Positions 45,165 through 50,428 of a stretch of 64,000 bases of DNA are shown piece after piece. The stretch lies in the sequence record MZ501052, one strand, 5' to 3'. This stretch comes from Escherichia phage AugustSocin. The position numbers and the translations under genes are program-made. How positions within the stretch are numbered: position 1 is the stretch's first letter; every line of letters begins with the position of its first letter. Under the pieces are notes generated by a model. That model was given only the letters and a program-made list of their open reading frames with translations, was not told the origin of the DNA and did not search any database.

Positions 45165-47429
45165 TCATAATTTACAGGATGAACAATCTTCAGCTTTTGG
45201 AGTTTCTATTTCATAATCATCAGTACCAGAACCGTCACGGGTATTATGATAATAGAAATTTTTTCCGCCAAAATACCAGAAATACAAAAGGTCATCAATC
45301 ATTATTGACATTGGAACCTTGCCTTTAGGGAAGATTTGGGGGTCATAGTATGTATTCGCCGAAGCTGATTGACAAACCCATTTCAGCATAATAGCTACCT
45401 GCGTAAGATAAGGTTTATTACCTTTCTTAGCTAATTTCCATGTATAATCATAAAGGTCTATGTTATGCTCAATATTGGGCACGACTTGATTAAAGGAGCC
45501 CTCTTTTGATTCTTTAACAGAGACTGGTCCACGTGGAGGCTCGATACCGTTTGTACTGTTAGAAACTTGGGAAGATGACTCACATGGCATAAGTGCTGAT
45601 AATGTGCTATTACGGATGCCAAAGAGCTTAAGGTCTTCCCGCAGCGACGACCAGTCACAAACGTATTTTGGAGCTGCGATTTGGTCAATCTTTTTATTGT
45701 ACCAGTCGATAGGTAATTCGCCTCGAGACCAACGAGTGTCTGAATAATATTCACAAGGTCCTTTTTCTTTGGCGAGTTTAATGGATGCTTTAATGAGTCC
45801 ATACTGTAATCTCTCAAATAGTTCATGTGTTAAATCGTTAGCATCTTCATAAGAAGCAAAGTTACTTGCCAACCAAGCTGCATAGTTAGTAACACCTACA
45901 CCGAGGTTACGACGCTTTTTAGCTTTTTCTGCTTCAGGAACTGGATATCCTTGGTAATCCAAAAGATTATCAAGAGCACGAACCTGGACTTCTGCCAATT
46001 CATTAATTTTATCTTGGTCTTGCCAGTCAAAATTATCCAGTACGAATGCAGAGAGAGTACACAATCCAATTTCAGCATCAGGACTATTCACATCATTTGT
46101 TGGAATAGCAATTTCACAGCACAAGTTACTCTGACGAATAGGTGCCTTTTCACGAATAAACGGAGTATAGTTATTCGTATTATCAATGAACTGTACATAA
46201 ATCCTTGCTGTTCCTGAGCGTTCAGTCATGAGCAATTCAAATAGTTCACGAGCTTTAATACGCTTTTTACGAATATTAGGGTCTTTTTCTGCGGCTTCAT
46301 ACAATTCACGGAAACGGTCTTGGTCTTTAAAATAAGAATAATAAAGCTCTCCGCCCATTTCATGGGGACTGAACAAAGTAATGTAATCGTTCTTTCCAAA
46401 ACGTTCCATCATCAAATCATTCAGTTGAACACCATAATCCATATGACGAATGCGGTTTTCTTCTACGCCTTTGTTATTTTTCAAAACAAGAAGATTTTCA
46501 ACTTCCAAATGCCAAATAGGATAATAAGCAGTAGCAGCGCCGCCACGAATTCCACCCTGTGAGCATGATTTAACAGCAGTCTGAAAATGTTTCCAAAAAG
46601 GAATAACACCAGTATGGCGTACTTCACCCATGCCAATCTTAGAACCTTCAGCACGAATCATACCAACGTTAATACCAATTCCAGCGCGTTTAGAGATATA
46701 TTCAACAATTGAAGCGGAAGCCTTATTGATAGACTTTAATGAATCACCTGCCTCAATAACAACGCATGAACTAAACTGCCGGGTTGGAGTACGGCAACCA
46801 GCCATAATAGGAGTTGGCAATGAAATCTGTCGAGTAGATACTGCTTCATAAAAACGGATAACGTGTTTTAATCTATCAACAGGTTCATCTTGATGCAATG
46901 CCATTCCAATAGTCATAAATGCAAACTGTGGAGTTTCATAAATTTGACCAGTGGTTTTATCTTTAACTAGATATTTTTCTTTTAATTGCATCGCCCCGGA
47001 ATAAGTAAATTCCATATCCCGCTCGTGCTTAATTTTTGATTCTAAAAATGTAATTTCTTCTGCAGAATATTTTGACAACAATTCAGGGTCGTATTTACCT
47101 TCATTTACACAGTAAGAAATATGGTCAATAAATGAACGTGGTTCATACTGCCCATAAACATGCTTACGAAGAGCAAACATTAAACAGCGTGCAGCTACAT
47201 ATTGATAATCAGGTTCTTCAACCGAAATAGAATTCGCAGCGGCCTTAATGACAATAGTCTGAATATCATCAGTTGTCATTCCATCACGGAGATAAGATTT
47301 AATATTTTCATATAATTCATAAGGATCTACTGATGTTCCTTCAGCTGCCCAAGATAAAACTTTAATAATTTTTTGTGGGTCAAAGCTCTGAGAAACACCA
47401 CTACTTTTGATAACATTAATTAATTGCAT
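45165..47429 (-). CDS. nrdA: ribonucleotide reductase large subunit
   Basis: 754 aa, T4 NrdA length, C-terminal CSSCKL tail. Confidence 0.95.
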   Translation of the reverse strand: MQLINVIKSSGVSQSFDPQKIIKVLSWAAEGTSVDPYELYENIKSYLRDGMTTDDIQTIVIKAAANSISVEEPDYQYVAARCLMFALRKHVYGQYEPRSFIDHISYCVNEGKYDPELLSKYSAEEITFLESKIKHERDMEFTYSGAMQLKEKYLVKDKTTGQIYETPQFAFMTIGMALHQDEPVDRLKHVIRFYEAVSTRQISLPTPIMAGCRTPTRQFSSCVVIEAGDSLKSINKASASIVEYISKRAGIGINVGMIRAEGSKIGMGEVRHTGVIPFWKHFQTAVKSCSQGGIRGGAATAYYPIWHLEVENLLVLKNNKGVEENRIRHMDYGVQLNDLMMERFGKNDYITLFSPHEMGGELYYSYFKDQDRFRELYEAAEKDPNIRKKRIKARELFELLMTERSGTARIYVQFIDNTNNYTPFIREKAPIRQSNLCCEIAIPTNDVNSPDAEIGLCTLSAFVLDNFDWQDQDKINELAEVQVRALDNLLDYQGYPVPEAEKAKKRRNLGVGVTNYAAWLASNFASYEDANDLTHELFERLQYGLIKASIKLAKEKGPCEYYSDTRWSRGELPIDWYNKKIDQIAAPKYVCDWSSLREDLKLFGIRNSTLSALMPCESSSQVSNSTNGIEPPRGPVSVKESKEGSFNQVVPNIEHNIDLYDYTWKLAKKGNKPYLTQVAIMLKWVCQSASANTYYDPQIFPKGKVPMSIMIDDLLYFWYFGGKNFYYHNTRDGSGTDDYEIETPKAEDCSSCKL

Positions 47430-47983: not shown

Positions 47984-48844
47984 TTACACCGCCATCTTTC
48001 CTTTAATAGGAGGATGTGATTCATAGTTGTTAAGAACAAAATTATGAGGCTTTGCAAATTGACTCAACCAAAATACCTGCGATTCTGTGTCCCATTCATC
48101 AAATTCATCTGGAAATTTTAATTGTAATTCGCATAAATCCATAGGTTCACGACATAAAATTTCTTTACATTGTTCTACGTGATTCATATAGATATGAGTA
48201 TTACCACCAGAAAATATCAAATCTCCCGGAATAAGATTACACATCTTAGCTACAATATGAACTAACGTAGCATATGATGCAATATTAAATGGAAGACCGA
48301 GGAAAACATCTACCGAACGTTGATACCACTGAAGGTCAAGGTATCCATTACGCACATTAAACTGATAGAACATATGACAAGGCGGTAATGCCATATATTT
48401 AAGTTCAGCTGGATTCCACGCAGAAACAATTTGACGCCTATCATTTGGCAGTTTTTTAATACGATCAACAACTTCTATAATTTGGTCTACACCGCCAAAA
48501 TCACGCCACTGTTTTCCATAAATTGGACCAAGTTCACCGCTATGGTATCCTAAATCTTTTGCTTGATTTTCGTAATTTTCATCCCAGACTGTTTTGCCTT
48601 GAATTAATGAATCATGTTGAATTAATCGTAAATCATTGACATTTGTGCTTCCTGATAAAAACCAAAGCAGCTCAGCAATGCAAGCTTTCCAGGCGAGCTT
48701 CTTAGTTGTTACCGCAGGAAAACCTTTAGTTAAATCCCAGCGCAATTTAGTACCGAACAAAGCAATTGTTCCTGTGCCTGTTCGGTCATCGGTTTCATAG
48801 CCATTTTCAAAAATGTCTTTAATTAAATCTTGGTATTGTTTCAT
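47984..48844 (-). CDS. td: thymidylate synthase
   Basis: 286 aa, continuous reading frame, no intron. Confidence 0.95.
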
Positions 48845-48889
48845 TTAGTACCTTATATAAATTATAATACATTTTATGAAGCTAAATAA

Positions 48890-49249
48890 TCAATACGGTT
48901 TAGCATCAAATTTTCTCTCAATTTCAGGTGTGAAATATAATTCTTTGCCACGTTTGGAAAAGCGACCAATAATATGATAATTATTCTCATCAAACGTGAT
49001 ATTACCAATATCCATAGCTTTCAACCAAATATCGATATTTCTATCCAGCTTTATGTCAAAATTCCAATACGGAGAACTATTACCGAAAATACTGCAAGCG
49101 GATTCAGTGAAACAACTACTATAAATCTTGTCTTTAGGAACTACTAATTGATAGACGCCTTTAATAAACTGAGGACCTTGCCATTTTGGCTGTTTCGCGT
49201 CTTTTTCTAATAGAATAGGGTAATAATTAAAATTCATATTTTCCGCCAC
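48890..49249 (-). CDS. hypothetical protein between frd and td
   Basis: 119-aa ORF, 8 nt after the frd stop and 45 nt before the td start. Confidence 0.6.
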   Translation of the reverse strand: MAENMNFNYYPILLEKDAKQPKWQGPQFIKGVYQLVVPKDKIYSSCFTESACSIFGNSSPYWNFDIKLDRNIDIWLKAMDIGNITFDENNYHIIGRFSKRGKELYFTPEIERKFDAKPY

Positions 49250-49257
49250 GCGTTATT

Positions 49258-50084
<827 letters not shown>

Positions 50085-50095
50085 ATTATCTCCTA

Positions 50096-50428
50096 TTAAA
50101 AAGGATCAGGAACATATCCGCTAGCTTTAATCATTTTAATTAACGTTAACATTCCTTTGTTAACTGCTCGTGAGATTTCATCAAAAACTTCATCACTAAA
50201 AAGTTCTAACACGCCCTTCTGAACTTTTAATTTACAGCCAACAATTTCTTCATCGCCTATAGTAAATTCATTACCACCAATTCCACCGAAAAACTTAATT
50301 ACACCAGTTAACTGTCTTCCACGAGAATATGGGTCGTGTGATAAAGTAATATGAGTCACCCCGGGTACAGTTTTAAATTGGCAGCGAATATTTACTTGTG
50401 AAATTCCAGTTACATGAATGTCAGACAT
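50096..50428 (-). CDS. hypothetical protein
   Basis: 110-aa ORF. Confidence 0.55.
   Translation of the reverse strand: MSDIHVTGISQVNIRCQFKTVPGVTHITLSHDPYSRGRQLTGVIKFFGGIGGNEFTIGDEEIVGCKLKVQKGVLELFSDEVFDEISRAVNKGMLTLIKMIKASGYVPDPF

Follow-up and report, generated by a model that had tools for sequence, protein, structure and literature searches.

In phage T4 the frd and td genes are directly adjacent, overlapping by 4 nt (ATGA), and the T4 record shows no ORF between them. A small gene occupies this junction in several other T-even phages. It is named td.1 in the T6 record AY262134.2 (ABI48938.1), and its counterparts are AR1_242, a 'conserved hypothetical protein', in Escherichia phage AR1 (Tequatrovirus), EcT2_00240 in T2 and RB32ORF229c in RB32, where the record describes it as 'flanked by 9 bp repeat'. 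The 64,000-nt stretch of Escherichia phage AugustSocin (MZ501052) analysed here, hereafter the window, contains the same gene: the four relatives share its length of 348 nt, 97-100% of its amino acids, its position between frd and td and its 9-nt flanking repeat, with no substantive difference. Over the 751 bases that surround the ORF, the window and AR1 share 99.9% identity, and tblastn found td.1 in 554 phage records, in 362 of them at an identity of at least 90%.

The ORF is therefore td.1, a known gene annotated in hundreds of genomes. The original prediction had described the T4 arrangement correctly and had proposed that the junction be compared across T-even genomes, a comparison that places td.1 in AR1, T2, T6 and RB32 and shows it to be absent from the T4 type. 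It had also named an annotated copy in T4 as a refutation; T4 has none, but T2 and T6 do. Since AR1_242, T6 td.1 and RB32ORF229c were annotated already, the ORF is not novel, and with the gene named in a T6 GenBank record its discovery value is small.

The gene lies on the minus strand, as do its upstream neighbour frd (dihydrofolate reductase, 49258..49839) and its downstream neighbour td (thymidylate synthase, 47984..48844). All three run in the same direction and are tightly packed. The gaps of 8 nt from the frd stop and 45 nt to the td start had been given exactly, and td is indeed uninterrupted, encoding 286 aa without an intron. The sequence of the 119-aa ORF (48890..49249, minus strand), which opens with GTG in the ORF listing, had likewise been quoted correctly, but its start had to be revised. 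Judging from the sequence, td.1 likely begins at the ATG at 49237 and not at the GTG at 49249, which makes it a CDS of 348 nt (48890..49237, minus strand) encoding 115 aa plus the stop. The GTG is merely the first possible start past an in-frame TAA. The ATG, in contrast, is the start annotated in AR1, T6, T2 and RB32, from which no database annotation differs; a weak GGA Shine-Dalgarno precedes it, and homologues likewise open with MNFNYY, in agreement with this start. The four extra in-frame codons, GTG GCG GAA AAT (49238..49249, minus strand), are, on the sequence and the annotated starts, probably a 5' leader that holds the weak Shine-Dalgarno and is not coding. A mini-ORF, ATG AAA TAA (49261..49253, minus strand), overlaps the frd stop (ATGA) and lies in the td.1 frame, 24 nt upstream of the td.1 ATG. 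On a metagenomic contig that carries a 63%-identical copy, the frd stop overlaps directly with the start codon of td.1.

We then looked at the constraint acting on the gene. Between the window and PTK, a Mosigvirus-like phage, 31 synonymous and 9 non-synonymous changes separate the td.1 copies (dN/dS of 0.04); the ratio is 0.05 against RB32, and the T2 copy differs by 15 synonymous changes and no non-synonymous one. The constraint is as tight as that on td. The dN/dS values for frd against PTK and RB32 were not used, since the ungapped comparison crosses indels there and makes them unreliable. On this conservation pattern td.1 is a genuine protein-coding gene under strong purifying selection, and the presence of the ORF in 554 records, with dN/dS ratios of 0.04-0.05 and the 15 to 0 changes against T2, bears out the claim that it is a real gene. 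Had the ORF arisen by chance in AT-rich spacer DNA and remained untranslated, a weak Shine-Dalgarno would be expected, and this is what the sequence has; but a dN/dS of 0.04, conservation down to about 30% identity with length and motifs kept, and a confident structure prediction give this reading a vanishingly small probability, and the conservation pattern refutes it.

The family to which td.1 belongs is small and confined to T4-like phages, with 22 cluster representatives found at E <= 0.001 among 1.8 billion proteins, 2 of them spurious. Residues 8-115 of the 119 match the profile of PHROG 1928 ('unknown function') at E 9.5e-36, and a family profile built here matches the window protein at E 2e-40. 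Copies with 93% identity are found in PTK (classified as Mosigvirus) and JQD51 (unclassified Tevenvirinae). More distant relatives, at 28-46% identity, also sit at the frd/td junction, in Jiaodavirus (Mineola), Kanagawavirus (Kosakonia 305, PEi26), Roskildevirus (FBB1), Moonvirus (CF1) and other Klebsiella phages. The order frd, td.1 homologue, td was found in all 27 of the loci that we annotated by profile searches, which cover at least six named Tevenvirinae genera. Three apparent multi-domain relatives were discarded: P0026 and P0028 are spurious repetitive sequences, and P0012, an NCBI protein of 195 aa, is a chimera. Residues 1-161 of P0012 correspond to the C-terminal region of a phage nucleotidyltransferase (phrog_388) and its last ~35 residues are the C-terminus of the Jiaodavirus td.1 homologue, an arrangement that could reflect either a disrupted gene in a Klebsiella phage or an assembly artefact.

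In 14 of the 27 loci an adjacent second copy is present. By hhalign it proves to be a genuine paralogue (probability 99.2%, E 8e-20), both copies matching PHROG 1928, and it stands beside frd and td in 124 records, including those of CC31, Melville, STP4-a, phiR1-RT and CHI14. This paralogue, found in Kanagawavirus, Moonvirus and other genera, shares with td.1 its slot and the motifs QxKW, HG[IL]Y and GRFxKxGSxxxF, but in the paralogue subgroup the QKKW motif is followed by an additional insert (WALV...PTID). Tequatrovirus has a single td.1 copy, and no paralogue was found elsewhere in the window. Between genera, identity to AR1 is 28-45% for Td.1, 43-49% for Frd and 69-78% for Td. The divergence of Td.1 thus tracks that of Frd more than that of Td, which is what vertical inheritance combined with faster evolution would produce. 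Gene order is highly conserved among T4-like genomes in general, and the constant position of td.1 is therefore weak evidence that its function is tied to Frd and Td.

The indel that distinguishes T4 from the window leaves a simple molecular mark, 417 bp flanked by copies of TAAATGAAA. The left copy of this 9-nt direct repeat (49256..49264, minus strand) contains the frd stop TGA (49260..49258) and the right copy (48839..48847, minus strand) contains the td start ATG (48844..48842); the copies are 417 bp apart, and a 9-mer pair so placed arose in 1.8% of shuffles. The cassette that they delimit (48848..49264, minus strand), absent from T4-type and RB69-type genomes, consists of one repeat copy, the leader, td.1 and the 45-nt spacer. 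In-silico removal of 48848..49264 reproduces the T4 junction except for one flanking mismatch. The T4 arrangement thus equals the window minus the repeat-bounded 417 bp, so that T4 looks derived. With a 58-nt T4 junction probe, full matches were obtained in 32 records only (T4, laboratory derivatives and a few isolates), and in 340 others, those of td.1-bearing phages, only the part from the right repeat copy onward aligned, with the alignment starting precisely there (query position 19). RB69 has the same clean ATGA frd/td junction as T4 (TATAAATGAAACAATACC; L032, 8384-8387), and 127 RB69-type Mosigvirus records share this T4-like junction without td.1. A Mosigvirus-like minority (PTK, JQD51) keeps the gene; there, owing to two additional A's, frd reads through the td.1 leader, is 12 codons longer and overlaps the td.1 start. 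As 32 T4-junction records and 127 Mosigvirus records do without it, td.1 is dispensable in nature.

Since td.1 is found in all more distant genera, its presence is by parsimony ancestral and the T4/RB69 state derived; the direction of the indel rests on this argument. The cassette was thus probably lost in T4-like and RB69-like lineages, and the loss could have occurred by recombination between the TAAATGAAA repeats or by exchange of a deleted allele. For the junction shared by T4 and RB69, both recurrent deletion at the repeat and allele exchange between genera would be adequate explanations. The original prediction had described an accessory gene slotted into a conserved operon. It was right insofar as td.1 is dispensable and absent from T4; the slotting-in is what did not hold, as the gene does not appear to have been inserted and its presence, seen in 27 of 27 loci with a divergence close in step with that of Frd, looks ancestral. 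T4 represents a minority state in Tequatrovirus (32 versus ~360 records) and is an incomplete reference for its own genus.

The opposite polarity deserves consideration, namely that an accessory or mobile cassette, td.1, entered between originally contiguous frd and td genes and spreads laterally among T-even phages, the 9-nt repeat being a target duplication or an insertion scar. Its main evidence comes from PTK, whose td.1 is closer to that of AR1 (dS 0.79) than is the flanking td (dS 2.06), with protein identities of 93-94% for Td.1 and ~81% for Td. The presence/absence polymorphism with identical breakpoints in two genera, the flanking 9-nt direct repeats and a promoter-like spacer that comes along with the gene would also fit. 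However, distant genera have homologues and paralogues in this very slot, diverged to a Frd-like degree, and there the gene overlaps frd and td and has neither repeats nor spacer. No transposase, integrase or nuclease motif is encoded. Moreover, TAAATGAAA is a common gene-start context, occurring 8 times on the minus strand of the window, and both flanking genes supply it naturally. We thus regard insertion as improbable and retain the ancestral presence of td.1; still, the same junction in two genera and the dS contrast in PTK imply that either the cassette or the allele without it has moved laterally to some extent. Protein identities in this region are mosaic as well: T2 is identical to the window in Td.1 (100%) and has 96% protein identity in Frd but only 89% in Td, whereas RB32 shows the reverse pattern (Frd 90%, Td 98%), which points to recombination breakpoints close to td.1.

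The td intron, present in 191 records, was considered as a possible cause of the loss, through I-TevI co-conversion, the junction being ~550 bp from the intron site. As a rule this link was rejected, since T6, RB3, RB6, PST and NBG2 carry both the intron and td.1. Given that T6, RB3, RB6 and PST hold both, the uninterrupted td of the window is incidental.

A different identity circulates in some records. Those of the BASEL phages AndreasVesalius and WilhelmHis describe Td.1 as a 'putative homing endonuclease', and the presence or absence of td.1 between conserved genes does recall the seg and mob genes. The BASEL label comes without a supporting note, however, and no GIY-YIG, HNH or LAGLIDADG match was obtained, even at E <= 10; the family has no invariant acidic, His or Tyr residue, no nuclease was found among the structural matches of the model, and the orthologues are syntenic across genera. 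Free-standing homing endonucleases of the Seg and Mob kind are built of two modules, a nuclease and a DNA-binding domain, and typically have ~200 aa or more, whereas Td.1 has 115 aa and one compact modelled domain. Like the seg (GIY-YIG) and mob (HNH) genes, td.1 is small and is present or absent between conserved genes in collinear genomes. In contrast to them, it has half the size, no nuclease motif and no DNA-binding module, and its orthologues keep their synteny from genus to genus, with purifying selection acting strongly on the gene; its distribution is polymorphic within Tequatrovirus and Mosigvirus, yet syntenic in many genera. That Td.1 is a free-standing homing endonuclease is thus extremely unlikely; with no motif, no fold and no note behind it, the idea is effectively refuted by the sequence and the label is unfounded.

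What the protein itself looks like was examined with a 27-sequence alignment and an AlphaFold2 model. Family members are single-domain proteins of ~95-120 aa, soluble and mildly basic, with a pI mostly of 8-9. In the alignment Q16, W19, G27, G91, K95 and G97 are invariant and N79, F93 and F102 nearly so, and the invariant columns include no D, E, H, C, S or Y. Td.1 carries the motifs that mark membership, QxKW, G[IV]Y and GRFxKxG...F. The model (pLDDT 91.9, pTM 0.85) is one compact domain made mostly of beta strands, with one helix at residues 68-76; the invariant residues are predicted to lie in two places, the QxKW motif, which forms a loop, and the GRFxKxG motif, which forms a beta hairpin. 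This model, at a pLDDT of 92, matched no solved fold, and comparison with the OB-fold domains of SSB, RPA, Teb1, HIN and S1 gave no significant similarity to the OB barrel. In agreement with the earlier statement that the ORF has no recognisable motifs, single-sequence and profile searches of Pfam, NCBIfam, PADLOC and PDB sequences gave no match to Td.1, leaving PHROG 1928 as the only one. In Pfam, the window protein had no match at E <= 10, and the other 26 members gave at E <= 1 only scattered single-member matches, none to a homing-endonuclease family. Td.1 proteins thus form a family under strong constraint that matches no solved fold and whose genes always lie between frd and td.

Taken together, these data lead us to propose, with a probability of roughly 0.8 for the statement as a whole, that td.1 is a genuine gene of the Tevenvirinae frd-td block, that it is ancestral there and that its product is most likely a binding module. 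As there are no invariant catalytic residues, Td.1 is probably a non-enzymatic binding protein. It would be translated from one mRNA with Frd and Td and would act as a binding module without enzymatic activity, either for a nucleotide or nucleic-acid ligand or for a protein that takes part in thymidylate synthesis. A target of one of these kinds is suggested by two motifs with aromatic and basic residues, QxKW and GRFxKxG, but as a specific mechanism we advance this only tentatively. The gene would improve fitness in nature and yet be dispensable, as T4 shows. A more pointed version, in which Td.1 is a structurally novel, non-catalytic factor of the thymidylate cycle that binds Td, Frd, mRNA or a nucleotide or folate and so tunes the dTMP supply, is doubtful; if it were true, such a factor would have been overlooked because the model phage T4 deleted td.1. 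T4 forms its dNTP-synthetase complex without td.1. As T4 lacks the gene, the family has stayed uncharacterised, and among the papers searched nothing relevant was found on td.1 or PHROG 1928.

A role unrelated to nucleotide metabolism was also weighed. Like many small early or middle T-even proteins, Td.1 could be a host-takeover or anti-defence protein, one that binds and blocks a host factor: it is small, with an orphan fold and no catalytic residues, it is dispensable in some lineages, and its gene lies among other small ORFs near frd that are absent from T4. Arms-race genes more often turn over quickly, however, whereas td.1 is under very strong purifying selection and its slot is stable and deeply conserved. 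The literature search found no link to a defence system, and PADLOC gave no match, though it covers defence rather than anti-defence proteins. We consider this role unlikely and favour a binding module belonging to the frd-td block.

The 45-nt spacer between td.1 and td could bear on the expression of td. A consensus scan of this spacer returned a candidate promoter, TTGATT-N18-TATTAT followed by TATAAT (48864..48893, minus strand), with 9 of 12 consensus matches, a score that is not above chance for the region. A promoter is annotated at the equivalent place in the Lutter record (L033, 462-494). PTK has a 13-nt spacer without a promoter-like site, and T4 has no td.1-td spacer at all. On its sequence, the sigma-70-like site is possibly an internal promoter for td. 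The spacer also holds a GCTTCA motif that resembles a MotA box.

Further small ORFs absent from T4 are found upstream of frd in the window, all on the minus strand: AR1_244 (49839-50084, 81 aa, phrog_3183) and AR1_245 (50096-50428, 110 aa, phrog_3566). For the latter the AR1 record gives 'no match in nr', but it is now found in 477 phage records. Downstream, both AR1 and the window continue with nrdA (window 45165-47429 and downstream) and then directly nrdB; they are without the mobE, nrdB.1 and I-TevIII genes of T4, which are further T4-specific mobile content in this cluster. The nearest parallels to td.1 in this part of the genome are frd.1/DUF5417, frd.2, frd.3, nrdA.1/DUF4326 and nrdA.2. 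These genes are present in T4, whereas td.1 is absent from it and has no sequence similarity to them; like td.1, however, they are short, co-oriented and tightly packed, and they are interleaved with frd, td and nrdA.
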